NCBI GenBank assembly: GCA_036867785.1 | Contig: CP145410.1 | Coordinates: 620,001-684,000, forward strand | DNA length: 64,000 bases | Source: Plasmodiophora brassicae | Taxonomy: Eukaryota | Reading direction: 5' to 3' | Shown: positions 3,925 to 62,442 of the stretch, in pieces | Layout of the letters: the number at the start of each line of letters is the position of its first letter | Numbering within the stretch: the first letter of the stretch is position 1 | Position numbers and translations under genes: made by a program | Notes under the pieces: generated by a model | Seen by the model: the letters and a program-made list of their open reading frames with translations, nothing else | The model's database searches: none | What the model was told of the DNA's origin: nothing

Positions 3925-6900
3925 TCAACTGCGACGGCGACGACGGCGACGTCGCCCACCGGACGCGTTCTGCTTCGCCGACACCGAATCTGTCGATATC
4001 GGCGACGCGGTCCTCGTTGACACCATTGCCAGCAACATGTCCGACTTGTCCTGGGATCCCGAGCTTGATTGTGAGGTGGGGTCGTCGTCGAACAATAGGT
4101 CGATGCTGGACAGTCCGACAACGCTTTCGCCGTTGTTGCCGCGATCACATTCGCTGGACTCTCCGATGCTGGGCATCTTCACTCCCAACAGGTGGAAGGT
4201 CGCGTCGAGATCGGGCACAGCGCTGTCTTCGCCAACGGCACTGCCGAGCGTTCCGTCAGGCTTGGTGGCCCCGTCGTCCTCGCCGTTTATCTGGTTGATG
4301 ACGAGATTCAGATCAGCGACTTTCAGCTCTTCGAGACGACGGAATGCCGCCTCGAGTTCAGTTTCGTCAGACTCGCCGTCAACGTTGATGATGCCGAGGC
4401 CATCGTCCGATTCCGTAAGCATCGCAAGGTCGTCGTCATCGTCATCGTCATCGTCGTCGTCCTTGACAGCGTCGTCTTCTTCATCGACGTCCCCTTCAGC
4501 GGCCAGCGCGTCTTCTTCTTTCATGTCATCGGCTTTTGTCGTCGTCCTTGTCGACATCGCCTCAAGAACCCTGAGCACATATGCCATCCTTAGCCCAATA
4601 TGAGGCAGGAACGTCAAGGGAAGGCCCTACCTATTGCCGGGCATGAAGAGTTCCTCGACGAGCGATGCTGGTGGCTGGCCGTGACCAAGTATATCCAGGG
4701 CGCCGTCCGGCAAACCTTCATCACTGCCGTCGATGATCTGGGTTAGGATGGCGGCTGCTTCCCGCACCATGGGATGCCAGTCTCGCAGAAGAGCACGAAC
4801 AGCAACCTGGATAACCTCCGGTTGCTTCTTTAGAACCGCAGGGGACGTTCCTGAAGCGGCCCAAATCAAGCGCAAGCCCCAGAGACGCGACGAAGCGTTC
4901 GACGCGTCCAAGCAGGCCTCACAGGCAGAGTCGACCCATAGCATATCGGGTACGCGGGGGCGACTCGCGGCACCTTCGCCCGTTGCTTCCAAATGCTCTT
5001 GACGATTAATCGTCACGATCCGTAGCATAGCCCACAGGCACATGGCCCGCACATTATGCCAGTTAGACGTTGCCGACCAGCGTAGGAGAAGCGACCAGAT
5101 GGCTACTAGCGTGTCGCTGCCGATGTCGTCGCTGCTGACGACCAGGTTCTGGAGAGCATCGGCGATCGTAAACTGACATGATGGGTCCGAGGTCGATGCT
5201 GCTGCGCACGACAAATAGAGCGATGCAAGCGCATCGCATGATGCGGTTGGCGACTTCGACAACTGCGACAGAAGTTGCAGAGCTTCGGCGCGAATCAATG
5301 AATGCGGGTCGGCAACAAGGCGTCGCAGCACTGGTAGAACGTGATGAAGCATATCATGGGGAGCGTTTTGCACAGGCACAGATCGTGCAGCCTGATTGGC
5401 GAAACGCAGCATTTCCAGATGCTCGTCATGGTTAACGGTACCGTCTTCATGGCTGAGGCAGCATACGAGTGCAGGAAAGTATCCCAGCTTCACGATGAGT
5501 TTGCACAGCAGGCGCCGCGACGCTATAGCAGCGTCGGAGCTGGCCGTATTCCTAACCAATAATCGTTAGAACGTGGGCACGACGGTTGCCCGTTAGGTGA
5601 GATTCCGACCTGTTCAGCAGGACCAGGAGAACGGCGCGTAGATGATGCCATTTCAGCAACGGTGACAGATTCTCCAGGATCACGTTCAGCAAACCAAACG
5701 TCTCGTCGAAGACGGAATTGGGGATCCAGACCAAAAACTGGCGAAGGAAGTCAAACAGGACAGGTGATGGCTCTACAATAAAACGTCAGCTAAGGCCGGT
5801 GAAAGGGTGAACCAGCACAATAAACAAACCGGCTATAGGCGCAACGCATAGCATAGCTTGGAGTACGTCCTTCGAGGGCGAACCATCCGTCATATGGCGA
5901 ATGGCAGCAAGGAAGATAGGATCCGTGACAGCGCCAATTGACTGGGACTCAGTCGCACGGGCACCAAGGTTATTGGCTCGAACGCACATCGAAAGACACT
6001 GCCATAACGCCCGGAACGTCGGCAGGTGCATCTTAGTGCGATGAACAGTGTGCATGGATATTAACTCGTCAAGTACGGGTACGATTCCAGCAAACGGCAT
6101 CTGTGTGCCCTTGGACGGATCACGCTGTGGTTCGACGGACCTATGCGTCGTTACCATCGACATTGCACGTTAAACTGGCGTTCGCTTACCCTCGGGTGGA
6201 GTCGGCCTGCGATTCAGCAACCCGATGCAAAAGGAGGAGCAGGCCCTGAAGTGGATGGGTCGTGGGTGATTCATTCGCCGACGTTGCCATCTGATCACAG
6301 GTCTGACGAGATTGCGCACTCAAGGCCGACGCCATCCAGTCAATAAAGTCCTGTCATATGGTAAGACACCACGACATTAGATGGAGGACTATAGCAGCGC
6401 TAACCTGCACTTGGTGTTCCTGGATGACCACGGGGAACCACTCAACAAGAAGACTCCAGACCTGCGTTGCAATCCTGTTAACAGCAGGATGGACGGGACC
6501 ACATAGATAAAACACGCTTGATAGCGACTCGCATGAGATTCGAGCATCGCCCTAACAGGTAGAGAATGTCAGACAAAGACGCGACAATGTGGAATGCCTC
6601 ACAACCTGAAGGCGCGCTAAGACAATCACCCAGAAACGAAGAACCGTTGGGATGGCGTGCGCAGCAGTAGCGATATCGTCGATGAGGCGGTTCAGTTCGG
6701 GTTGAAGGGTATCTTCGGATAATCGCTGTAGCGCGCGTCCGGTTAGCTGGCCGAGGCACGACTCGATGGATTCCATAACAGGGGTGATTGAGACGGGGTC
6801 GTGAACGGATATGATGGCGGATGTCATAACCGGAAGGTATGGCGCGCAATCGCAGCCAAGAACGTCAATTACAAACTCGAGGCAACGTGCAGCGGCCTCC

Positions 6901-7750
6901 CTCACGAAACCCACCGGATCCGCCACCATGCGGCACAACAGCTGCGTGACAACCGTTAAGCATAGGGCGATGAAACACGTTCTACGAGACGCATACCAGA
7001 ATAAGATCCGGCTGGAGTCGGGAGACAACTGACAACGCGTCTTCATGTTTTTCGACGAGGCGATCACTGTGGACAGCCATAGATAACGCTTTCAGCTTGT
7101 CTGTGGTCTTGTTAGGACCGGTTAGCGCCGCAGCCGCAAGAACTCGAAGCCCAGCACTCGATGCGGCCAAAGATGAGAGCACGACATCATCTGAAGAACC
7201 AGTGTCGTCGAGGTTGTCAACGAAAGTGGCAGCGTTGAGGAGGAGCTCGGACGATTGTTGGTATGAGCGTCCGTCGACAAGGGCTAGGGCAGCAAGAACG
7301 TCGGTGTGCACCGCCTCTCTGAACCTCGACGCTTCTCTGAGTCTGGCGGACGCATTAAGAAGCGGTATCACTGACGGCACAGACGGCGCTACCGCCAGAC
7401 TATGCCCATGTACAGCAACGGTCAACGGGACCGTTGTTGGTGTCGTAACAATGAGGTGTGATGCAACACCCAGAACTCGGAACGAAGCATACGAACGTGC
7501 GACTTTTGACGGGGAATATCCCAAGCCCCGCAGCTCAACGTATGTCCTCACGTCGATCGGCGACGACGCCCCATCGCAGCCAACTACAACGAGTACGACG
7601 ACAGCAGGACCGGGCAGGTCGACGCGGAACGAGTCTGTCCAAGGAAAAGTCAGTTCCTCGAAGTAAACAGGCGATAGGTTTCGACATGCCATTGCTGACA
7701 GCGACCAAATCTGAGAGACAGTACCGACAAATCAACGGGGCCGAGACCAT
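3925..7750 (-). CDS. Large multi-exon HEAT/ARM-repeat protein with acidic C-terminal tail
   Basis: Consecutive minus-strand ORFs (6982-7692, 6552-7067, 5786-6163, 4627-5559, 3925-4617) separated by short intron-like gaps. HEAT-like motifs ADPVGFVREAAARCL, ADPHSLIRAEALQLL and RDWHPMVREAAAIL. Poly-Asp tract and basic C-terminus. Confidence 0.65.
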
Positions 7751-8009
7751 GTTCGCCTCCTCTCATGCAAGCGCCTTCGAACGTGGCGGATGATACCAAG
7801 TCCCAAGTCGTTAGCGGCGTGGCGTTTTAAGCCGGCGTGATGAAAACCCTGAGACGAACCGGCAAACACGACACGATACCAGTGTGCCGAGGGGCCTGGT
7901 CGTCACACAGTGACGGAGACCGCCAGAACGGCCCTTCTCTTGTTGGCTCCGACGCAAGGTGAGAGCAGCATGGCCGGGTACCCCCCGGTCACCGAACGCA
8001 AACGTTATG

Positions 8010-10136
8010 TCAGGTGGAACCACCGTTTGACCAGCGGGAGAGCTTCAGTGTTGCTCGTATTTCGTCAGCGCAACCGACGCTATCGTACAGGTCGCACAAG
8101 ATCCGCCTTGCTGCCATCATGTCCTTCGACTGCAGGTCGGACAATGAGCAGAGCTTGCGAAATACACGACAGGCACGTTCCACGTCGCCGTGCTTGCGAC
8201 AAGCATCGAGCAGTTCCATCCACGATATACATGATAGAGTCGTCGTCGCCAGCTGCTCGCATTTGTCCAGGTCGCCTAGCCTGGCGTGCAAGCCGATCAA
8301 GCAGGCCAGATGGAGGTCGTTCATGGTGATATGCCAGGTGCTGCAAAGCTCAGAGACGATACCGATCGCGAGGTCCAGGTCAGCGGCATGCCTGCATGCG
8401 GACAAGAGGGCGCCCAGCGTTACCTCGTCAGGCCTCAGGTTCGCCGTTTTCAACTGTTCGAACGTAACCATCGCGTCGGTGAGCATTCCAACGTTAGCGT
8501 ATGCTGCGATCATGGACGTGAACGTTACGACGTTTGGTGTCGACGTTTGACGTCGATCGCTGAACACGCGCTTGGCGGTACGAAGGTGTCCACTTTGAGC
8601 AAAAGCAGTGATAAACGCGCTGGTGAGATAGTCGTCTGAAGGCGCGACAAGGCACCAACGTTCGTGCAAGGAATACAGGAAGTCGACGTGCGAACAGCGG
8701 CCGCAACCGGCAACAAGGCAGCAAAGCGCAGGTATATCCAGGTCGATGCCACGTCTGCGCATGGCGTCCAGCAAGGCCATTGCCTGAGTAATGCAATCGG
8801 CCTTCGCGAATGCCGAAACAATGTTGAAACAGATCTCGGGCGACAGCATCAGGACACCTGGACTTTGCAGAACACGCTCACAGAATTCGACCGCTTTGAC
8901 GTGCACGCCATGGCGGCTGTAAGCAGCAATCATCGTATTGAACGTCGATGGACTTGGCACTGCCTCCTTGGCCCGTTCACCAAAGACACGCTCCGCTTCA
9001 TCCAGGTGACCACATCGATCATAGGCTGATACGAACGCGCACACGACAATGTCATTGTCTAGTAATGCATGCTGCCGTGCGTACTGCTGAAGAATTTCGA
9101 TGGCGGGCCGGTCAGAACACCGACCACACGCCGCAACAAACGAGACCAGAACAGGAGCGACAACGATCACGTTACGTTGAACCATGGTTCGGAAGACGGC
9201 CATGCCCTGGGTGACCCGATCCGCATTGGACAATGCAGATAGGATGTGGGTGAAGATCTGTTCGGATGGCGGCAGCAAGATGGCATCCATCAACGGGATA
9301 ACGTTGCAGGCCGCATCGACTCGGTTCTGCGACACGAGCGCCTTGACCAGGTTGCCGAACGTCTGGCGGTTCCGGTGCGGAGCAATACGACCATGACGAA
9401 TGAGGCGTAGAAGGTGTTCGGCGGTGTCGGCCGCGTCTGGCGAGTGACCTTCGGCGCAGCACGCCGCAAACATTGACAACAGCTTCTCGGTCACATCGAC
9501 CTGGTAGTGGATGGAATCCCTCACCAGGGCGAGCGCCGAACCCGGTCGATTGGACGCTCGACAAACGTGCGCGACGCTGTAGATGGCGTTGTGGGAGCGT
9601 AGCCCGCATTTCGCATAGAGCGCCAGAACGTCAGAGAGTCTCGGGGGCGTTGTCATCAGGCAGGCATGGACGAAGTTGCCGAACAGGCTATCGCACACGT
9701 CAACACCATTGCAAAGTGCGGCATCGAGAACAGTCGGCGCTTTCCCAGGCAGACATCTCTTGCAAGCCGACATCATCGACTGGAAGAACCGGATATCGGG
9801 CCGCCCATCGCAGCAAGCGAGGGCCCGTTCAAAGATCGTCCATGCGCGCCCAGGATCGTCTTCGTGTTTCAGCGCGCGAACTGCCAGCCGCACCGACGGC
9901 GCGCGGAGGAACTTCCGATACAGGTCCTTCGATGCGGGCCGCCGCGTCGCCGCTCCTGCTGGCGACTGCTCCGACGAGCGCCCTGGGCCAGGCAGCGGCC
10001 GCGGCCGCAGACTATACAGCGCCGTTCGCCTCTCGAGCAGCGCGCATCGCGTCAGCATTGCCGGGGACGACGGCAGTGCAGCTGCCTGCCACGGGGAACC
10101 GCGAACAGCGCCCCTGCCCCTGGGGACGAACTTCAT
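8010..10136 (-). CDS. PLS-class (E-type) pentatricopeptide repeat protein, intronless, no DYW domain; likely start Met at 10058
   Basis: 708-aa ORF with tandem 31-36-aa PPR motifs (TFNTMIAAYSRHG, TFTSMIAAYANVG, PDEVTLGALLSACRH). E1-like SWMELLDACRKHGDVERA. Arg-rich N-terminus MLTRCALLERR. Confidence 0.9.
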   Translation of the reverse strand: MKFVPRGRGAVRGSPWQAAALPSSPAMLTRCALLERRTALYSLRPRPLPGPGRSSEQSPAGAATRRPASKDLYRKFLRAPSVRLAVRALKHEDDPGRAWTIFERALACCDGRPDIRFFQSMMSACKRCLPGKAPTVLDAALCNGVDVCDSLFGNFVHACLMTTPPRLSDVLALYAKCGLRSHNAIYSVAHVCRASNRPGSALALVRDSIHYQVDVTEKLLSMFAACCAEGHSPDAADTAEHLLRLIRHGRIAPHRNRQTFGNLVKALVSQNRVDAACNVIPLMDAILLPPSEQIFTHILSALSNADRVTQGMAVFRTMVQRNVIVVAPVLVSFVAACGRCSDRPAIEILQQYARQHALLDNDIVVCAFVSAYDRCGHLDEAERVFGERAKEAVPSPSTFNTMIAAYSRHGVHVKAVEFCERVLQSPGVLMLSPEICFNIVSAFAKADCITQAMALLDAMRRRGIDLDIPALCCLVAGCGRCSHVDFLYSLHERWCLVAPSDDYLTSAFITAFAQSGHLRTAKRVFSDRRQTSTPNVVTFTSMIAAYANVGMLTDAMVTFEQLKTANLRPDEVTLGALLSACRHAADLDLAIGIVSELCSTWHITMNDLHLACLIGLHARLGDLDKCEQLATTTLSCISWMELLDACRKHGDVERACRVFRKLCSLSDLQSKDMMAARRILCDLYDSVGCADEIRATLKLSRWSNGGST

Positions 10137-10267
10137 CCAGCGTTACGACACGACGAACGCCGTCACAACGAACATATTATTGATGTATAGGCTGGCGTGA
10201 CCCATCTGTAGCGTCGTCGTCGAGCGTCGGTTGATGCTGACGCTGGCCGTTGCCGGTGGGCAGAGCG

Positions 10268-11098
10268 TCACGTTCGGACACCAGTTATCCACCTGAGGCG
10301 GCCGTTGTAATCGCGATGCGCCTCGACGAGGTCCAGACCAGCCGAGCGCATCCACTGTTGCAGTCGGAGCGTCTGGAACGTCTCGCCGTACTCGATGACA
10401 AGGGACGGCGCCGATGAGGACGACGCCGCCCTTGGTCGAACCAGATAAGGGGTGGCCCGTATGATGCTCCGGCAAACGTCTAGACCGAGATGCCCAGCGC
10501 AAAGAGCACGTGGGGACTCCCAGCGTCGCACGCCTTCATCAAGCCGTCGCCAGTGATGAACAGGAATGTAGGGCGGGTTCGACACGACCATATCGAACAT
10601 GCTGCCGCCGTTCAGGTCCAGCGCCCTCCCGACCCACCCATCGTCATCGCCGACAACCATCTCCGCGAACCGGACGCTCTTGCAGCCGACCTTTACAGCA
10701 TTGTCGCCGGATTGCTGAACGGCATCGGGCGACGCATCGATCGCAACGACGGACAGGCCAGGAACGGCGCTGGCTAACGCCAGACTAATGCATCCTGTGC
10801 CGCACCCGATCTCCAGGACGGTCTCCGACCCGGTGACCCGCCCCGCCAGCCAGGCGCACCACTGCTCTGTCTCCGGCCTCGGTATCAGCTGCCCAGGTCG
10901 GCAGTGCACGTCGATGCCGACGAACGGCTGCGTGCCCAGCACGAGCTGCAGCGGTTTCCCGGTGAGGCGATCGCGCAGCAGGTCGGCGGCGTCCTTCCCA
11001 GTCGACCTGGCGTGCTCCATGATCCAGCGCGCTTCCTGCCCTGGGCAGTCGGTGACACGGGACGCGCGCAGCGCCGCCTGAATCGATGCCAGGCGCAT
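10268..11098 (-). CDS. HEMK1: HemK/PrmC (MTQ1-like) release-factor glutamine methyltransferase
   Basis: LIPRPETE, EIGCGTGCI SAM-binding motif and the NPPY catalytic motif. Confidence 0.9.
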   Translation of the reverse strand: MRLASIQAALRASRVTDCPGQEARWIMEHARSTGKDAADLLRDRLTGKPLQLVLGTQPFVGIDVHCRPGQLIPRPETEQWCAWLAGRVTGSETVLEIGCGTGCISLALASAVPGLSVVAIDASPDAVQQSGDNAVKVGCKSVRFAEMVVGDDDGWVGRALDLNGGSMFDMVVSNPPYIPVHHWRRLDEGVRRWESPRALCAGHLGLDVCRSIIRATPYLVRPRAASSSSAPSLVIEYGETFQTLRLQQWMRSAGLDLVEAHRDYNGRLRWITGVRT

Positions 11099-11140
11099 GC
11101 CTCCTTACCTGTACTGACTGGAGTGCGCGGCGGCGTCGCC

Positions 11141-11788
11141 ATGGATCGCCGCGACGTTGACGTCGTCCCGCTGCGGGACGTGACTGTCGCCCGCGACCTC
11201 AACCGCATCTTCCTGCCCGTACGATACGATGATAGGTTCTACGACGACGTCATGGCGTCTGGACTCAGGTCCGTCTGCGTTCCTTGCTGTCGGGTTGACA
11301 GTTGGTCATTGTTGCCATCGGTGCAGTTTCATTGGTTCGTGATCTGTGCACGATCGTCTGCTGCTGTCGTCTGCCATTGATGCTCTACGGTAGCGGCTGA
11401 TGGCGACGAGCCGATCGGGCTGGTCTGCTGCTCACTGGAATCGCCGACGCGTGTTTATATTGGCAGCCTGGGCGTCAAAGCGACGGTTCTGCTCGCGCTG
11501 GTTCTTCTGCGTTTCTGCTGATGTTGAAAGATGCTTGTGTAGTATCGAGGGCGGGGTCTGGCAACCCGATTAATAACGAGAGTCCTGGACGAAAGCGTCG
11601 AGATGAACGTCGAATCCATATACCTGCACGTGCAGGCGAACAACGACACGGCGCTCGACCTGTACGAACGTCTTGGGTTCATACGCGTTGGTAAGGTCGA
11701 CAACTACTACAAGCGAGTGAAACCGTCAACGGCGTTCATCCTGGAGAGGCGCCTTCACTCTGCCGTGCACAACGGGACCATCAATTGA
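11141..11788 (+). CDS. GNAT N-terminal acetyltransferase, NAA50/NAA60-like (multi-exon)
   Basis: LNRIFLPVRYDDRFY, YIGSLGV, YRGRGLA, IYLHVQANNDTALDLYERLGF...NYY. Confidence 0.85.
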
Positions 11789-11803
11789 GATCGACTTGTA
11801 TTA

Positions 11804-12271
11804 TTATTCACCCCATTCGCAGCGGTTGGCTGGCCCCAACGACACCATACCGTCGTTCTTGCAAAGGTAGTCGTCGTCGACCGCACACAAGGCGAACGCT
11901 TTCATCGATTCGGCTGAAGACGACCAGGTCCTTGTTCGCATCGTCACGACATGGTCATCGAACCGAACCTTCTTTCCTGACGATGACCACAGGAATCGTC
12001 GCAGGGCAAATCGTCTTCGTCGGCGCCGGGGACGATGCAGTAAGCATCCATGGATGGCCGTGTCTTCGCCATCTGCATCGGCTTCTGGTTGGGGCGACTC
12101 GTCTTCTGGGCGGAAGTGTTTCCCTACCAGACGCCTGAGGAACGATCGTTTGCGGTGCGCATCTGCGGCCGATGGCATATGACGACTCGCCTCAGGATCG
12201 ATATGGACATCGCAGCCACCATCGTCATCGTCACTGATAGTTCTCGTGTCCCCGGCACAGAAGCACCCCAT
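11804..12271 (-). CDS. Hypothetical protein with N-terminal MGCFC acylation-type motif and KKVRF motif
   Basis: Single ORF from the Met at 12271. MGCFCAG start. KKVRF matches the RVxF PP1-docking consensus. Confidence 0.45.
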   Translation of the reverse strand: MGCFCAGDTRTISDDDDGGCDVHIDPEASRHMPSAADAHRKRSFLRRLVGKHFRPEDESPQPEADADGEDTAIHGCLLHRPRRRRRRFALRRFLWSSSGKKVRFDDHVVTMRTRTWSSSAESMKAFALCAVDDDYLCKNDGMVSLGPANRCEWGE

Positions 12272-12636
12272 TAAATCCACCGTCGTAGGTCGCGACACGT
12301 GAATCGGGAAGACAATGGACGCGCGAGACGAGCACCGCCGCCCAACGTAATACTGTGCGTTGACAGACTTGAAGATGGTCGCTGGTCACAGGGTCGGCCC
12401 TATTATTAGTCGATCGCCTGTTTATCGTGCCTGCCAAGGTTCTCCTTCGCTATGGACGCTTGCCTCAATTGGCGTCCGACGTGGACGCCTTCGCAGAAAA
12501 ACTGGAAGCCCAGACGCGGTCGCCGTTACGTTTACCGCAGCGCGTCGACGGCAACTTGGGCACTCGCTGGCAGCGCACCTGTCAACCGGGTAATGCGCGA
12601 CACATTCAGGCAGTACGACGGTTTATGTACTCGGTC

Positions 12637-52225: not shown

Positions 52226-55200
52226 TCACTTCAGCAGTGCATTCGTCGAGCCGACCATCTTGTCGAAGAGGCCCCTCAACCGGTTGTACAGTGGGTCCAG
52301 GTCGGCGTTCTTTCGTGTCTTGAATACGTTCAGTGCGAAACGCAATTCGTCGATCTGGGCGAGTAGGGCAGCTTTGAGTGCAGACTGGGAGGCTTCCTTG
52401 CCGGGCACGGTTGTGTCGAGGAACGCTTCGATGTACTTCTTGGTACCGCCATTGACGGCGGCATCGCAGATGCCATTCAGCAGCATCGTTAGAGGGCCCA
52501 GATCGAGGAACTCCTCACGGTGAGCCGCCTTCTCCAGCGACAAGGCCGTCGAACGCAACTCGTTGTTCTTCTTGACGATTGTCTCAACAGCAGTATCGAT
52601 TGGATGGACGACGCGTTGAACGGTCTCAGCAACGGGCAAGCGACGCTGCGTTGAAGGGAAAGGCTCCTTCGTTCGGATAAAGGTCTTGCGAACCCAAAGG
52701 TCCTTGAACTCGTTCGAAGGGCGCGCTTCCCCAGACCGGTTTTCCGTCTTGCAGTACACGAAGACAGAAACCTCATCGTTTGCACGGTACTTCAGCACCT
52801 CCTCAGGAATATGGGCCTAGAGTGGACCACTGAGTACATACAACGATTGATAGCATACCGAAACGTACAGGAACGCGAGAAACACTTCCATCCACACCAA
52901 GCATTTCCGCTTGGCTTGACAGCGTCAACGATGTAATCGTTATAACGAGTTCATGCTCGTCAACAACATCGGCAGGCGGGTCGTCGGAGGTCATGAGGAT
53001 CTTCGCATTCGTGTGCATTGCCCTGATCCGCTGTGTGAAATCCATAACGGACTCCAGTTTGATTCCACGGTAGACGAACTCTTGTCGGTCGGTCCTGAGC
53101 AAAACCGGTTCAGTTCACACTCAACGCAAGCGTCCAGCGGCGCAAACCTATTGCTGTAGAACACCACTCGGAAGTACGATGGGAAGTACCGCGTTTGGCT
53201 GATGATTTTTCTGAAGAGTGCCGCCTGACGCTCCAGAATACCAGCAAGCTTGTCGTAGTCGAACAGGTTGACCTCATAGTGAACGCGCAGCTGCTCGCAT
53301 GCTTGTATCGCGCGTTCCCACAGCTCAGCGCGATCATACAGGTCGATAACTCGCAAGAGCAGGTGTTCCTTTTGAGACTCTTCGGTCTCGATGCCAACAC
53401 CGCCATCAACAGTATCCCAGTTTGATAGCGGAACCGAACTCCAGTCAAGCAGCTGTGCTTGTAGCAAAGCAGTGTTACCAGCTTCTGCAAATGCACCGAG
53501 AGATGCATTCAGGTCGATCAGATATGAATAGTACCTAGACGGGTGAAATCAGACGAGTTAACGCAGCAGAAAGGCGCTGCATACCGGTACAGCATGGTCT
53601 TTCGACGACCAGCATTGGAGTCGGACAGCAGGAAGTCGAGCAAACGGGTCACGATTGACGCCCGTTCGTGCTCATACTGTTCAGTCTTGGGGAGCAGCAA
53701 CAGGGACTGCATGAGGTCAGCCAAAGTAGACAGATGCTGCAGGAACTCCTTCAGTTTCGCTGCAAGGGACGATTCCTCGGGGCGGAGCCGCTCCTTCAAG
53801 GAGGAGTCCAGACGACTAACAAAGAGCTGCGCTTCCTCTTGAGATTCATTCGCAAGGACATCCAAGGCGTCAATGGTATAGCGCTCCAGTTCCGAGAGGT
53901 CGTCAGACCGCGCATGCTCTTCCCTGACAAGGTCCATATACATATCCATTGCAAGTAGATGGGACTGGCAGCTTTCCTCTTCATCAGTAGGGTCAGGACC
54001 CGCGCGTCGCGATAAAGGAATCAGGAGACTCGTGCAGAAGAAGTGTGAAATGCACCGAAGGTCCTGAACCGTGCGCCAAGCCTTCCGGATGACCGTTCGG
54101 GTGGTTTCTGGCAAAGCGGCGGGGTCCACAAAAGCCCGCTTGGCTTCAGTCAAGCCATGAAGGTCCTTGTGAGTTTCGAGAACGACACACAGGTGGAGGA
54201 AAGCCTGCATTGTCGGCAGGTCCAAGGCCGCCGAATGCGCTGATATCGCAGAAATGACGCGACCCACAATAGACAGCTCCCAGGTGTTCAGAACGATCCA
54301 CATTGAGGGGTACACCCGATGCTGGAGGGCGGTCTCGCAGACTTGAATCAATCGGATCAAATCGTGGTTCTCCAGAGATCCAAAGCATTCCGACATGTCC
54401 TCGTCAGGAATGCAATGCAGAATGATGCACAAATACGCACAGGATTCCATGACGAGGTCGACGGACCGAGTGTGCTGAGCCTGCTGGGATACGACAGGAG
54501 CAGCACCGTTGCGAGCTTGGGCGCTAGATGCTACGTTGACCAGCGCGGGAAGAAGAACAACAAACGGTGACAGATCAGCTGCTCCAGGACCACCTTCGGA
54601 AGCCGACTGGATCACCTGAATCAAATCGCCAACGATCCCGACGGCCAGGTATGATTCGTCAGGCGTGCTCGTCAAGTGGAACTGGAGAGCGGCAATGACG
54701 GTCGTCTCGATGATGGACCACGAATCGCATTGCCGTCCAACGACAGACTGCACGATACTGCCGATCATGCGCAGCTTGTACATGTGCAACTTCGCATTGT
54801 CCTCTGAATGAGGAACCGCATTCAGGGCCGACAGGCAAATCTCGCCCAACTCGACAGGAGAGAAGATTTCGGATAAGTCAGCGAATGTCGAGCTGAAAGC
54901 ACGAAGAACGAAGGCCTTGCATCCGATCAACGGGTCCTTCGGTCCACTTTGAGTCTCCAGGAGAGCAGTGACGTCACGAAGCAGAGCCTGCAGATGACCC
55001 TTGAAGACAGCCGATGACTTCGATGGCTGCTGGGAGGCACTTCGAACGATGAAGCGCAGGACATGCTGGAAACACTTGCACATCAAAGTCAGCTGCTTGA
55101 ACTTTGTCGAGTTTGGTGCTGTGCTGTGGACAGTGGCGTACTCTAGGGCCATTCGAGATCGCGCGATCAGGATTGGGCAAGCGTCAGGCGCGTGGAACAC

Positions 55201-58087
55201 TTCGGATACATAGGAATCAACAGATGCGCCCACCGTCGACATTTTCGTCGTCAGCTGGTCGATGGTGAACAGTAGAGCAAGAAACACTTGACCAATGATA
55301 TCGTCGTTGTAGACAGGTGAAACGAGAACAGCGAACAGTGTGTCGAACGTTTCCTTGACGAATTTCGCAAGTTCGGCACCTGAAATCATTGTAAACTTCG
55401 TCAGAACCGTCTGCATTTGCGCAGCGTCGAGTTGTCGCCAGTTGAAGAGGGCATGCAGAGCGTCCAACTGTGTGGTCTTCACCGAACTGAGGCGCGTTTC
55501 AAGAACCAGTTCTTCTTTGCGTCGCATCAGCACCGAATGGGCCCGACTCCGGTTGTCATCCGACCTGAAATGCGCGTTTGCATCAAGGTAACGAAGAGCC
55601 GATGAGGCGCCGCCTGCAGAGGGTTGTCCAAGGTTCTTGAAAGGCTTGTAGCAGGGCAATGTGTGGGTGCCATCAGCAATTACAGCACCGGTAGAGGACG
55701 TAAGTGGAAGGAACGCAAACGAGCAGAGCTGGTTGTTGTCCACGTTCGTCGACACATGCCAGACAGTGCACAGAATGTGGCACTTGGAAAACATCGACGC
55801 TTGGAGGCGGATGTTAAGCGTCTCACAGAAGACCGGGTTGTTCCAATGGTAGTTCACAGTGCTGCAGTATTCGGTGACACCCTTGACAGTTGGGCCAACA
55901 CCTCGGAAAATGCAATCGGGGACAATGTACCCGGAACCGGTCAATACCTGCACGCGGACCTCGATATTCTTCGCGCTCTTCTTCTTATCCTGCAGGAAGT
56001 CACCCCCACGAATCGTAACATAGAAATCGTTACGGTCGTCACTCGGATGGATGTTGCTGGACAGGGAGAGCATCTGCATGCGTGAACCAGTCGACAGGGG
56101 CTTTTTCGCAGGTTCGAGCATGAGACCGAGGGCGAACCCCTTCGTCTGGGGAATGATTTCAAAGTTCGACGAACCGCGAATGATCATATTGTGCAAGTCG
56201 CTGAACTGCAACGGTTCTTTCGCCCGGTAGACGACCAGGTGCGGAGGGTTGCACCATTGGCCAAGCTGCTCAAACAGTGGCGCGTAGGAGGACAACTTCA
56301 GTACGGCACAGCCGAAAGGTCGCCGGTAGCACGTCGATTTCTTGGACTTCTTGGTCGACGCGGGTTTTCCATCGAAACGCAGAGAGCCCATCCGGAAGAT
56401 TTGGCAGACGAGATAGAGCCCCTCCTTGAAGTGTGACAGTTCGACGTCGCGGAACTCGCCTTTCAGATTTCCCAAAAGGTTGATGTCCTCGGGCATTCCA
56501 GCAGCCGTCAACTCGACAACGTATTCCTCACTGACGAAGCGTTGCTGTTCCGGAGAGTACAACGAGAAGAATACCTGAGTCGATTCGCCGACGGAGAATA
56601 TGCATGCCATGACATCCAAATGAAACGTGAATGGCGTATTGCGCGGCAAGTTCGACTCGAACTCGAACTCATCGGAATCCGTCACGTTCGGTTTTCCAGC
56701 AGACGCCGCAGCCATGATTTGTCGACGCTCCTCCGCCTACGAATTATCCAGTCAGGATTCGAACATGAGGAGGAGGAGCAACAGACCAACCTTCTGCAAC
56801 CATAACGACGACGATTCTTTCTGCATCGTATCGTACATGTCGCGATGAAGAGACAAAAGTTCCTGAATGGGCGTGTTGGCAACGGTTGCCACCGCGTGCC
56901 CGGCTGTGCGAGGGCACATGTGTCCCTCATCGCATCGGCGGCAGCTCTCAAGAAGCTCAATGATTTCCCGCCCTGCGCCAATATCAGGAAACTATACACT
57001 GGAATGACCCGATAGGCCTTACGGATCCGTTCGCGGTCAGCTTGCGCAAACGAGGCATTGCAGACGTCACGCCGCATCGTCAACAGCTGCGCTGACCGTT
57101 CGTGAAGCTCATAATGCTCTTCCACGCGACCTTCCGCTATCAAATGACGCATATGATACTCGAATTTGCCGATTATCTATGAGCAGAAGTCAGTACATGA
57201 TCACAGAAATGCAGCACGTTGCAGACGACCTCTCCGATCTCGCTCGACAGCGAAGCCGTTTCCGAACGCTGACGAGAAACCGACCGCGACGAGGTTGACT
57301 CGCGAGAACTGACAGTTGGAGCCGGAGATGGAACAGACTCTCGTTGTGAAGACGTGGAACTCGGCTTCTCCGTTGACGGAGCTTGAGCGATGGAAACAAT
57401 AGGAGGGAGCGGCTTGAGCACACCCGAACGTGAGACGGAAGGAGGCCTAGGACGGTTGCACGCCGGGACGGGCGAATGCGAACGCGAATCTGGCTTTTCC
57501 CCGACAACCGGAAGGGAAGTCGCAGGCAGCTGACGCCTCTGTGGAGGTAACGGCCGAGATGCCTTCATGTCGAATGATGAGGGGATTGCAGGTTCGGCTT
57601 CCGGTCCTGCAGAACTCTTTCTTGCAACAAGCTGGGCCACGATAGCCCGCTTGGCCAGCATATCTTCCGACATCCTCCGAGGTTGTCGACCTTCATCACG
57701 AGAGCTTTCACCCGCAGTAGATCCTCTTGACGATGGCGATGCTGTCTTCTGGACTGGCTCTGCTGCCGGCTTTTCAATAGTCAAGACCTCAGGTGGCCCA
57801 GATGATTCATCATCTCCTTTGTCAAGCTGAATGTACGACGCAGGGAAAATGCCATTGACATTCTGGCTGGGATCGGTGGGATGGATCAGAGTGCCACGGT
57901 ACCACCCAGCTTGCTCGAATTGCACGTTCACGAGGGCGTTCACACCAAACGAGACCTGATGCGGTCCATTCGCTTCGAATGGGTACAGTGCTGCCAAACA
58001 GAATTAGCTTTGTCACGAAAGCAGCCCTGGCACACCCAGCGTCGTACCTCTGCCTTGCCGGTCAACCTTCGCCCAGGACGACGCCAT
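52226..58087 (-). CDS. DOCK-family (DOCK1-5-like) Rac GEF: SH3, DOCK_N, C2/DHR1, DHR2
   Basis: SH3 ALYPFE..GWYRG..GIFPASYI; YRRPFGCAVL; RNDFYVTI..GDF..KNIEV; PSYFRVVFY; EFVYRG; LTMLLNGICDAAVNGGTKKY. Confidence 0.93.
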
Positions 58088-59604: not shown

Positions 59605-62442
59605 TTACCAATAATCTCTACATGAACATCTGCCGTTATGGAAATGATGTTGGCGGATGGGATCCCGGATGTAGATGTCTCGTTCGAAAAGCGCAGAGGT
59701 TCGCTTGGCGCCGTCGTGGCAGTCCCGACAGATCGGCGAGCTCTTCTCGACGCGAACCGCTTGCCCAACAGGCGCCACCTTGAGCGCATACGCAATGGCA
59801 AGCATCTCGCCATGCATCACATGATCGGGCGAAGATTGATTCACTTTGTATCCCGCTTTGACAAGGCGTCCCAAGAGCTCGTCGTGTTGGGCTCGGAAAT
59901 CAGGAACGGATTCGTATAAAACATCACTGGGTTGGAACGACATCCTTCCATCCACTAGACGTAGATCTGCCTGCTCGATGACCGTTGGCACAGACCTCAT
60001 CCCCATCTCGCTTCGCAGACGCGCTGCATCCTCGTCACGTCCACAACCAGAAAACATGTTTAGCATCAGCGCATACGCAGGCGCCAGCGCCTCTGGTTCA
60101 GCATTGCCGAAGGACAGAATACGTGCAAAGACGCGTTCGGCCCTTGCAACATCAGAATGGTGCCAACATGCCCGAAGGAGGGTTAGCCAGTGCCCAATTT
60201 GACCTTGGGAGTGACTTGCAGCGATCCGTTCTGCCTGCTCCAGGTTGCCCACTCGGCCATGCAGGTCGACCATGAAAACAGCACCGCCAGGCGACACGGC
60301 GACCTGATAATCCCGGGCGAACTCAGATAACACTGCGTTTGCCTGTGACAAATCCCCGACATGGCTGCATGCGGCCAGCAACGCCCCAAGTGTCGCCTCA
60401 GTCGGCAGCATACGTGAACTCTTCAGCCTTTCGTATGCGACCATGGCGTTCGACAGCATCCCCCAATCGGCAAACGCCGCCAGCATTGCATTGTAAACGG
60501 CAATGCTTGTCGTCGACACCTCTTTACAGTGCGATTCGAAGACTTGCGCGCTCGTTTCAATGTCACCACAGCGAGCAAATGCGGCCACGAGAGAGCGGAT
60601 AACGCCGTCGTCGCGAAGAAGAGCGTGATTGTGGTCCAGCGCGTACTGGTGCAAGGTCTGAAGAGCGGGCAGTTCGGACGAGCGACCGACGGCAGATACA
60701 AGTAAGGTAAACACATGTGCGCCTAAGACTATGCCCTGCGTCAGCATTGTGTCAAACAGTTTCATGGCATCAGCAATGCGGTTTTCCTCGGCAAGTACAG
60801 GGAGGATTGAAGCGAAGGTATCCGCAGACGGCTGCGTGTCGCAAGCGGTCATCTGCTCGAATGCTGACAGCGCTTGACTGGCCATTCCACAGCGACAGTA
60901 TGCACCGATCATTGCATCGAAAACGGTATTGCTAGGGGTGGAGGATTCTCCAGCATCAAAGATTTGCTTGGCGGTATCGATCAGACCACATTTGCCATAA
61001 GCGACAATAAATGCCCTGACAACAGCGTCGTCTGTCATCAGCCCATGGTCATTCGCAAATCGACGCAGCGACTGAAGTGTGCCAAGCTCTGCAGTGCGGC
61101 CACATGCGTCGACAATCGGAACCAACACATCAGGGTCTGCCTCGACCCCTCCTCCAAACGTGCTGTTAAAAACGGACAATGCACCAGAAACGCAGCCGTC
61201 TCTGAGAAGCGCCATGACCAGCATTGAACATACCTCGCGGGCGGGTTCAGCTTCGCTGGGTTTGTACTTGTCAAAGCTTTCGACAGCATCCTGAAGCAGC
61301 CCATGACGGGTATACGTCATCACCATTGCACGGAGTGTCGCCTGGTCTGGCTTCGAGTTCGCGCAACGATCAAGGAATACCTGCCGTGCAGATTCCAGGT
61401 CACCACAACGATCGCATGCGGATATCAATGCGCAGACGACGAAGTCGTCATCTAGGAGTTGCTTGTCTCGGGCGTACTGCCACAATTTGTGGACCGAAGA
61501 CTGGTTAGCGGACCGGCCGCACGCTCCTACCAGCAAACAGAACACGGGATTGTCGACACGCAGGTCCCGTTTCACCATGCTTTCGAACAGAGCGATGGCC
61601 TGGAAGACGCGACCCGTCTTTGCAAGCGCCGACAGAATTAGGGTGGAGATTTGCATGGACGGTTGCACTCCGATGGATTCCATCAAGTCCAATGCGCGCA
61701 GGGCGGACGCGACACGATTCTGGGACAGCAGCGCCTTGACAAGGTTCGCATACAGCTGGACCTGCTTATGTGGGGCGATGCGCTTCGACCGAATATATCC
61801 TAGAAGACGCTCGGCAGTGTCGGCACCGACAGGGCGGCGAGCTTCAGCGCAGCATACTGCGAACAGGGACAGCATCTCCTCGCTGATCTCCACGTTGTTG
61901 TCAATCGCATCTGATACGAGGGACAATGCCGAGGCAGGCCGTCTCGCATGTCGGCAGATGTTTGCAACACCAAAGATGACATTGTGAGATCGAGGACCGC
62001 ATGTCGCGTATCTCTCTAGCACCTGTCGCATTAAGGGCCGCTTGGCGCGTTGGCACGCGGCGATAAACGTGCAGAAGAGAGCATCGCAGACATGACATCC
62101 GCGTTTCACAGCGGCGTCCAACACATCTGGCGCCTTGCCTGGCAGGTGCCGCTTACAGAACGACATCATGACTTGGTAGAATCTTACATCTGCAGCCATC
62201 CCCGTATCGACGACCTGCCGAAACACAGCCCAACCACGATTGCCGTCGCTCTCCACCTTCAACGTCCGAACGGCATGTGGAACAGATCGACAAAGACACG
62301 TGCCCCCTTCCACAGTGTCGCTCCCGTCGACAGCAGCCCCTACAGCAGGCGCGCTGGTTGCTGTAGATCGCCCCCACCGTGACGCGGTTTGCCCTCGCCA
62401 AATCGTCTGTCGAAGAATGAATCGAACTCGACCAAGCATCAT
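59605..62442 (-). CDS. DYW-type PLS pentatricopeptide repeat protein (PPR array, E1, E2, DYW cytidine deaminase), intronless
   Basis: 945-aa ORF. Transit-like MMLGRVRFILRQTIWRGQTASRWGRS. PPR array. C-terminus HGEMLAIAYAL-x-CRDCH..K..S..FERDIYIRDPIRQHHFHNGRCSCRDYW. Confidence 0.95.
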   Translation of the reverse strand: MMLGRVRFILRQTIWRGQTASRWGRSTATSAPAVGAAVDGSDTVEGGTCLCRSVPHAVRTLKVESDGNRGWAVFRQVVDTGMAADVRFYQVMMSFCKRHLPGKAPDVLDAAVKRGCHVCDALFCTFIAACQRAKRPLMRQVLERYATCGPRSHNVIFGVANICRHARRPASALSLVSDAIDNNVEISEEMLSLFAVCCAEARRPVGADTAERLLGYIRSKRIAPHKQVQLYANLVKALLSQNRVASALRALDLMESIGVQPSMQISTLILSALAKTGRVFQAIALFESMVKRDLRVDNPVFCLLVGACGRSANQSSVHKLWQYARDKQLLDDDFVVCALISACDRCGDLESARQVFLDRCANSKPDQATLRAMVMTYTRHGLLQDAVESFDKYKPSEAEPAREVCSMLVMALLRDGCVSGALSVFNSTFGGGVEADPDVLVPIVDACGRTAELGTLQSLRRFANDHGLMTDDAVVRAFIVAYGKCGLIDTAKQIFDAGESSTPSNTVFDAMIGAYCRCGMASQALSAFEQMTACDTQPSADTFASILPVLAEENRIADAMKLFDTMLTQGIVLGAHVFTLLVSAVGRSSELPALQTLHQYALDHNHALLRDDGVIRSLVAAFARCGDIETSAQVFESHCKEVSTTSIAVYNAMLAAFADWGMLSNAMVAYERLKSSRMLPTEATLGALLAACSHVGDLSQANAVLSEFARDYQVAVSPGGAVFMVDLHGRVGNLEQAERIAASHSQGQIGHWLTLLRACWHHSDVARAERVFARILSFGNAEPEALAPAYALMLNMFSGCGRDEDAARLRSEMGMRSVPTVIEQADLRLVDGRMSFQPSDVLYESVPDFRAQHDELLGRLVKAGYKVNQSSPDHVMHGEMLAIAYALKVAPVGQAVRVEKSSPICRDCHDGAKRTSALFERDIYIRDPIRQHHFHNGRCSCRDYW

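Follow-up and report, generated by a model that had tools for sequence, protein, structure and literature searches.

A transcribed, intronless Plasmodiophora brassicae gene for a pentatricopeptide repeat protein that ends at E2 and may select sites for C-to-U editing with a deaminase in trans

A 64,000-nucleotide stretch of Plasmodiophora brassicae DNA (contig CP145410.1 of assembly GCA_036867785.1, positions 620,001 to 684,000 of the forward strand; called the window and numbered from its first letter) carries, on its minus strand at 8010..10136, a gene for a pentatricopeptide repeat (PPR) protein that stops after the E1 and E2 motifs, where its relatives continue into a DYW deaminase domain. 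We use the working labels P0003 for this E-type protein (open reading frame (ORF) 8010-10136), P0004 for the 548-aa public model of the same gene, and P0001 for a PPR-DYW protein encoded elsewhere in the window (ORF 59605-62442). The paralogy of the two proteins, the architecture and fold of P0003, the clean absence of the DYW domain from it, the transcription of its gene and the mixed composition of its family are established here, and we hold them with high confidence. The complete statement that we put forward is that this nuclear, intronless and transcribed gene encodes an E-subclass PPR protein of the PLS type (with P, L and S motifs), which serves site recognition in C-to-U editing while the deaminase acts in trans; taken as a whole, it is tentative, and we give it a little less than an even chance.

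The ORF of P0003 is open over 708 codons and has its stop at 8010-8012. A preliminary description of this DNA, made from its letters, had placed both genes, and the 708-codon and 945-codon ORFs were recovered where it put them. In what follows, the N block means residues 81-290 of P0003, and the conserved block is its extension to about residue 394 (profile 81-394). The parts of the two genes, and the complementary DNA (cDNA) cover of the first, are:

8010..10136, minus strand: complete reading frame for the E-type PPR protein P0003, with 708 codons before the stop; the public model P0004 (548 aa) begins at Met161
9897..10136, minus strand: leader, residues 1-80, with 16 Arg/Lys against 3 Asp/Glu; disordered in the model except for a helix at 26-40
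9267..9896, minus strand: N block, residues 81-290, a capping helix and six PPR-like helical hairpins; the best-conserved part of the family
8955..9266, minus strand: first canonical P, L and S-like motifs, residues 291-394, which belong to the conserved family block
8532..8954, minus strand: central array, residues 395-535, four PPR motifs (P, P-like, L-like, S-like); the most variable part, differing in length among paralogs
8232..8531, minus strand: P2, L2 and S2 motifs, residues 536-635, with the best Pfam PPR match at residues 534-581
8130..8231, minus strand: E1 motif, residues 636-669, read by Pfam as a PPR repeat
8013..8129, minus strand: E2 motif of two helices, then a 7-residue tail, residues 670-708, with the stop where paralogs begin the PG box and DYW domain
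7690..10621, no strand assigned: cDNA contig cover without a joint, from the X1, X6 and X8 contigs (X12 contig, 7690-10102), spliced in the adjoining gene
59605..62442, minus strand: paralogous PPR-DYW gene P0001 (PBRA_001489), 945 codons, ending in CSCRDYW, with the N block at 61348-62286 and the DYW domain at 59608-59820

The genes for P0003 and P0001 lie on the same strand with 49.5 kb between them, and a tblastn search of six family members against the 64-kb window finds these two loci only. BLASTP aligns the two proteins at E 1e-126 with 215/502 identical residues; a second high-scoring segment pair (E 4e-61) arises because the longer P0001 holds extra repeats. Identity is highest in the N block (102/189 aligned positions, 54%, P0003 81-270 versus P0001 53-241), followed by the 124 residues after it (58/124, 47%), the region from P2 to E2 (54/162, 33%) and the central array (45/145, 31%). 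Five motif strings that had been quoted as common to the two proteins are all legible in this alignment. The shared N-terminal block is not restricted to the pair: it occurs family-wide, and its conservation runs to about residue 394. In Pfam, P0001 matches PPR families, DYW_deaminase (74.4 bits) and a sub-threshold E_motif.

P0003, which the preliminary description had called DYW-less, indeed has no Pfam match to that domain. Its Pfam matches are to PPR families only (PF13041 (PPR_2) at 1.6e-31, PF01535 (PPR) at 2.2e-27 and PF12854 at 4.3e-17), all above the curated cut-offs. On the 3' side of the gene, the family DYW profile reached at most 1.2 bits in the six frames of 6900-8100, compared with 169.6 bits for P0001 as a control. 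As no remnant appears in any downstream frame, the domain is cleanly absent and not frameshifted. The E1 and E2 motifs of P0003 were assigned by position against the DYW paralogs only. The C-terminal family profile matches P0003 over profile positions 2-150 with 133.7 bits, and the E1-E2 segment scores 72.8 bits against a profile of 38 DYW members, whose own leave-one-out scores are 37-116 bits (median 86.5); against the same profile, the remaining E-type members, three in number, reach 75-103 bits. E2 had been described as partial, which needs correction: it is essentially complete, with both helices modelled (H670-687, H690-701).

These data bear on whether the gene could be the relic of a decaying DYW gene, one that was truncated and is turning into a pseudogene. 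Such a relic would be expected to lack the catalytic domain, as P0003 does; in addition, some family-conserved residues of S2, E1 and E2 are replaced, and the last 30-residue blocks have the lowest identity to the family (0.19-0.23). However, the frame has stayed open for 708 codons, the E1-E2 score falls inside the family range, no frameshifted DYW remnant lies downstream, and the N block reaches 504 bits with the family profile, a score that only P0001 exceeds. Together with the transcripts and the structural model described below, this makes decay of the gene very unlikely.

The family was counted as clusters at 50% identity, with 76 rows scored and 11 dropped (N-block score ≤200 bits or ≤250 profile positions). 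The remaining 65 representatives, which have the whole block, comprise 39 with a DYW domain, four that end at E2 (P0003, P0025, P0040 and P0064) and 22 with neither, some of which may be cut gene models. Of the four E-type members, three stop within or shortly beyond the second helix of E2, whereas P0064 stops after the first. The nearest database proteins bear the name P. brassicae. Counted together with those that the window encodes, the members so named are five: two with DYW (P0001, P0009), one E-type (P0003) and two with the PLS array only (PBRA_005810, PBRA_008562). A second homology search with a 64-sequence alignment added no family member, and a metagenome contig scan with one family alignment matched 113 stretches and yielded 0 relatives. 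The earlier suggestion of a dispersed family with deaminase-bearing and deaminase-less members, as opposed to a lone gene, is thus borne out, with two copies in the window, a third (P0009) on a contig of 1,943,040 bases, equal in length to the one that carries the window's protein, and others on other contigs. The word expanded, which had also been used, applies to the family across sources (about 65 clusters) rather than to this genome. With at least five P. brassicae copies, the ~65 clusters, cDNA cover and an E1-E2 score of 72.8 bits, these are not the only two copies, and the E-type copy is neither silent nor pseudogene-like.

Catalytic residues were counted in the 38 DYW members that have a full C-terminal match. 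HxE is kept in 24, CxxCH in 33 and the terminal CxC in 37; HxE and CxxCH are kept together in 21 (a hand count from the alignment), and 17 have a PG dipeptide within the first 70 of the last 170 residues. In the 14 members from which HxE is absent, the glutamate is replaced or displaced in twelve (HSVK, HSTK, HSDK, HGPK, HSAE) and the histidine is changed to Arg in two. HxE, CxxCH and the terminal CxC are all present in P0001 and P0009. At its DYW end, P0001 matches the solved domains 7o4e (OTP86, E 3.1e-17) and 7w86 (DYW1, E 5.1e-17), with the alignment running from HxE to the C-terminus; this end differs from them in that, of the 141 P0001 residues searched, the first 61, with the PG-box region, are unaligned. 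Judged by the retained residues, a working deaminase in P0001 and P0009 is plausible.

The N block gives a star-like quick tree, in which 3 of the 62 inner branches are starred. It groups P0003 with two members that have DYW and one that has neither domain (Shimodaira-Hasegawa-like approximate likelihood ratio test (SH-aLRT) 93), and the nearest relative of P0003 by identity is a DYW member, P0022 (54%). The free quick tree has three changes between E and DYW; a tree that joins the four E-type members is not rejected (approximately unbiased test, p-AU 0.151), and for this reason we make no claim that DYW was lost independently more than once. A recent transfer from the host plant was considered and ruled out; the best plant match has E 2.9e-27 and 19% identity.

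Transcription was read from contigs of four runs from four studies (X1, X6, X8 and X12) aligned to 5500-12500; such contigs give no expression level, and a contig across two genes is no proof that they share one transcript. In each of the four runs, one contig skips seven introns of 49-58 bases in the adjoining gene at 5550-7690, six of them with GT..AG and one with GC..AG ends on the minus strand, indicating that the contigs are spliced cDNA. From 7690 the spliced contig continues without a joint and with 0 differences to 10614-10623 in three runs and to 10102 in the fourth. Because the ORF is unbroken in spliced cDNA contigs, the gene for P0003 is both transcribed and intronless, the latter as previously proposed. 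The recovery of such contigs in four runs of four studies also speaks against a decaying gene. The GC..AG intron is 55 bases long (7635-7689, minus strand) and lies directly after an ATG at 7690-7692, between the PPR stop and the long ORF of the next gene; the six further introns of that gene are of 49-58 bases. At 11268-11393, the contigs of all four runs skip 124 bases (GT..TA ends) and have seven other letters instead, a replacement rather than a clean splice, which could reflect a strain or assembly difference.

There are two possible starts in the ORF, Met1 (10134-10136) and Met27 (10056-10058). Homology begins at about residue 81, and Met27 aligns with the first residue of P0001 in the family alignment. 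The X12 contigs break at 10102/10109, between the two methionines, and those of the other three runs continue into the upstream gene; the break is a weak hint of a transcript 5' end. The public models begin inside the conserved block, P0004 at Met161 and PBRA_001489 at Met82, and judged by this alignment both are too short at the 5' end.

The leader of P0003 is presumed, from its composition, to be a mitochondrial presequence. A leader of 25-140 residues is present in 50 family members; Arg/Lys exceed Asp/Glu in the leaders of all 50, and the first 20 positions are free of acidic residues in 34 of these. The leaders also bear on whether the family acts outside the parasite mitochondrion, for instance as secreted proteins on the RNA of host organelles, an idea that starts from the life of P. 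brassicae inside plant cells, in whose organelles factors of this kind are at work. By inspection, however, the leaders are Arg-rich and presequence-like, unlike hydrophobic secretion signals, and the family is far from plant PPR proteins (best plant match E 2.9e-27, 19% identity). We regard action outside the parasite mitochondrion as extremely improbable.

An AlphaFold (AF2) model of P0003 was built on 64 family sequences and has a mean predicted local distance difference test score (pLDDT) of 90 and a predicted template modelling score (pTM) of 0.81. The model is confident over residues 68-698, a further point against a relic. Residues 1-65 are disordered except for the helix at 26-40, and from residue 68 to 701 helical hairpins follow one another without a break; the 18 from residue 82 to 701 are the six PPR-like hairpins of the N block, ten PPR motifs, E1 and E2. 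The spacing of the hairpins is 35/35/34/37/35/34/34/35/36/29, with an additional P-like motif in the repeat unit. The motif consensus strings resemble the plant P, L and S types, with S-like motifs that we take to be longer than in plants. Many fifth positions in the motifs are C, A, V or F, in a register checked on three P motifs. The top Foldseek match of the model is 9kfx_A (E 6.4e-14), a synthetic PPR-DYW editing factor with RNA, and the next are PPR10 and designer PPRs. P0003 offers nothing to align with the DYW part of 9kfx, and the TM-scores are modest (0.43/0.49), which is to be expected when long solenoids curve differently.

The N block sets this family apart. A phmmer search with residues 75-290 of P0003 against 1.84 billion representatives returned 75 proteins at E ≤0.001, of which 62 reached E ≤1e-30, and at strong E-values it returned only this PPR family. 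The block had been called lineage-specific, which holds in this limited sense; the members that carry a species name are P. brassicae. In all but one of the proteins with the whole block, it starts at most 134 residues from the N-terminus. Column entropy is lowest here (mean 1.96 bits versus 2.2-2.3 elsewhere), and in a nine-member alignment 43 of the 43 invariant columns fall within residues 97-394. The Pfam PPR models give no match to the N block at E ≤1; only TPR_14 matches, with 24.3 bits. In the model, by contrast, the block consists of hairpins continuous with the PPR array, and Protein Atlas language-model features place it among generic PPR clusters (best score 0.96), with no family-specific lead. 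Where canonical P motifs mostly have N, T or S, it carries V, Q, C/G, F/Y, S and A/G, in the register taken from the three P motifs. Most likely the N block serves the family as a common scaffold or docking part and does not itself read bases.

In plants, PLS PPR editing factors of the E class, CRR4 among them, act together with DYW1, DYW2 or MEF8-type proteins, which give the deaminase in trans. P0003 resembles these factors in its PLS-like array, its E1 and E2 motifs and its stop before the PG box and DYW domain, in belonging to a family with full-DYW paralogs, and in being encoded by an intronless gene, though the adjoining gene has seven short introns. In contrast to them, it is not recognised by the plant-derived Pfam E_motif model, its S-like motifs are ~34 residues apart with a second P-like motif in the repeat unit, and a conserved N block (210 residues, or ~310 to residue 394) stands before the array in every member of its family.

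By this likeness, P0003 would enter the mitochondrion, where its variable central motifs would bind one or a few transcripts. It would pick the C-to-U site, and a catalytically intact paralog such as P0001 or P0009 would supply the deaminase; the conserved N block would serve as the scaffold or docking part and would not read bases. Mitochondrial entry and specific RNA binding are argued from plant PLS proteins, an analogy that gains support from the structural match to a PPR-DYW factor with bound RNA. Recruitment of a DYW protein in trans by P0003 is an unproven analogy to plants; a complex prediction for P0003 532-708 with P0001 805-945, run without controls, scored 0.05 against a mark of 0.34, which decides neither for nor against contact. 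That P. brassicae edits mitochondrial RNA at all is probable, a judgement made because the DYW residues are intact in paralogs and on no other ground. One could go further and suggest that the N block is a family-specific assembly module through which the non-catalytic members (E-type, PLS-only and DYW without HxE or CxxCH) share a few intact DYW paralogs, in a MORF-independent editosome that arose in Rhizaria and drives mitochondrial C-to-U editing in the clubroot and powdery-scab parasites; we think this extension unlikely.

Several points weigh against a role of P0003 in editing. Its contact with a DYW protein is argued by analogy. Mitochondrial targeting is read from the leader composition, and editing in P. 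brassicae is predicted from nuclear genes alone. Pfam E_motif (PF20431) gives no match to P0003 at E ≤0.01 in the whole protein or at E ≤1 in residues 560-708. The same model gives P0001 only 15.9-17.9 bits against a cut-off of 27.3, and P0007 and P0010 carry E_motif in precomputed matches. Several of the residues conserved by the family in S2, E1 and E2 are changed in P0003, and the ratio of its E1-E2 score to its P2-L2-S2 score, 0.61, would be sixth-lowest among the 38 DYW members, within their range. P0001 and P0009 have no PG box and show a deletion between the GY motif and HxE relative to P0007, P0010 and P0012 (for P0001, within window 59608-60030). The PG box matters for editing in plants. 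Finally, in the consulted text of the P. brassicae mitochondrial genome paper, editing appears in the reference list only and PPR proteins appear nowhere (PMC6823432).

P0003 could instead be an RNA-binding PPR protein outside editing, which, having lost DYW, stabilises, splices or translates a mitochondrial transcript and in which E1 and E2 are merely terminal PPR-like repeats. Its lack of a deaminase and of any sign of a partner would follow directly, as would the reading of E1 by Pfam as an ordinary PPR repeat, and the 54 mitochondrial introns given for P. brassicae in the accessible part of its genome report would offer many possible splicing clients (PMC6823432). Moreover, a PPR array alone seems to be a viable product, because 22 of the 65 family representatives, including PBRA_005810 and PBRA_008562, have neither E nor DYW. 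On the other hand, all four E-type representatives keep E1-E2 at scores typical of DYW members, and the positions at which they stop, within or shortly beyond the second helix of E2 in three and after the first in P0064, fit a retained E function. To our knowledge, almost every plant E-class protein that has been characterised is an editing factor, which also counts against a role elsewhere. We consider a non-editing function possible, if on the doubtful side.

The surroundings of the gene are those of eukaryotic nuclear DNA with a G+C content of ~57%. The other genes of the window are ordinary and encode a DOCK protein, a B-family DNA polymerase, an RGS protein, an importin-alpha-like Arm protein and a small methyltransferase. 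The methyltransferase gene is the upstream neighbour (10268-11098, minus strand); its small-domain product (Pfam MTS, PrmA-like) has an NPPY motif spotted by eye in the translation, and we take it to resemble release-factor glutamine methyltransferases. The DOCK gene (53518-56715, minus strand) is a 1065-codon ORF with DOCK N-terminal, C2 and TPR regions; the catalytic DHR2 is absent within the ORF, and the gene probably has more exons downstream.

PPR-DYW proteins outside plants have been described before. They are known from Naegleria and other protists (Knoop and Rudinger in 2010 and Schallenberg-Rudinger in 2013, both as cited in passages of PMC11946409), and among Rhizaria, the endomyxan paradinids have PPR-DYW proteins together with mitochondrial C-to-U and A-to-I editing, according to the same passages (PMC11946409). 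A 2026 survey gives '31 DYW in Rhizaria' in its accessible text (PMC13386178). The family reported here shares with the paradinid proteins a rhizarian (Endomyxa) nuclear genome and the combination of PLS-like PPR motifs with a DYW domain that has HxE and CxxC residues. It differs in its E-type members, its shared N block and its frequent loss of HxE, none of which is described in the consulted text of these two papers (PMC11946409, PMC13386178). Plasmodiophora is not named in the consulted text of either, though the survey supplement may list species. In literature searches, matches to Plasmodiophora with DYW concern host plants only, and a search for Phytomyxea or phytomyxids returned no report of C-to-U editing or PPR-DYW factors. 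The P. brassicae mitochondrial genome is given as 114,663 bp with 54 introns in the part of its report that we used (PMC6823432). Database entries already call two P. brassicae proteins DYW domain-containing.

PPR-DYW genes in Rhizaria are therefore in print, and what is new is a rhizarian PLS-like PPR family with its own N-terminal module, with E-type members and with many DYW members that lack catalytic residues. At the level of annotation, two public gene models, both of which begin within the conserved block, are corrected. A mixed family in which some members have intact deaminase residues predicts C-to-U editing in phytomyxid mitochondria, and this prediction can be tested on public data alone, by comparing RNA-seq reads with the published mitochondrial genome. 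The phytomyxids include the clubroot and powdery-scab pathogens, and in them the family would provide a second, independent setting in which to study how PPR proteins function when they have no deaminase.

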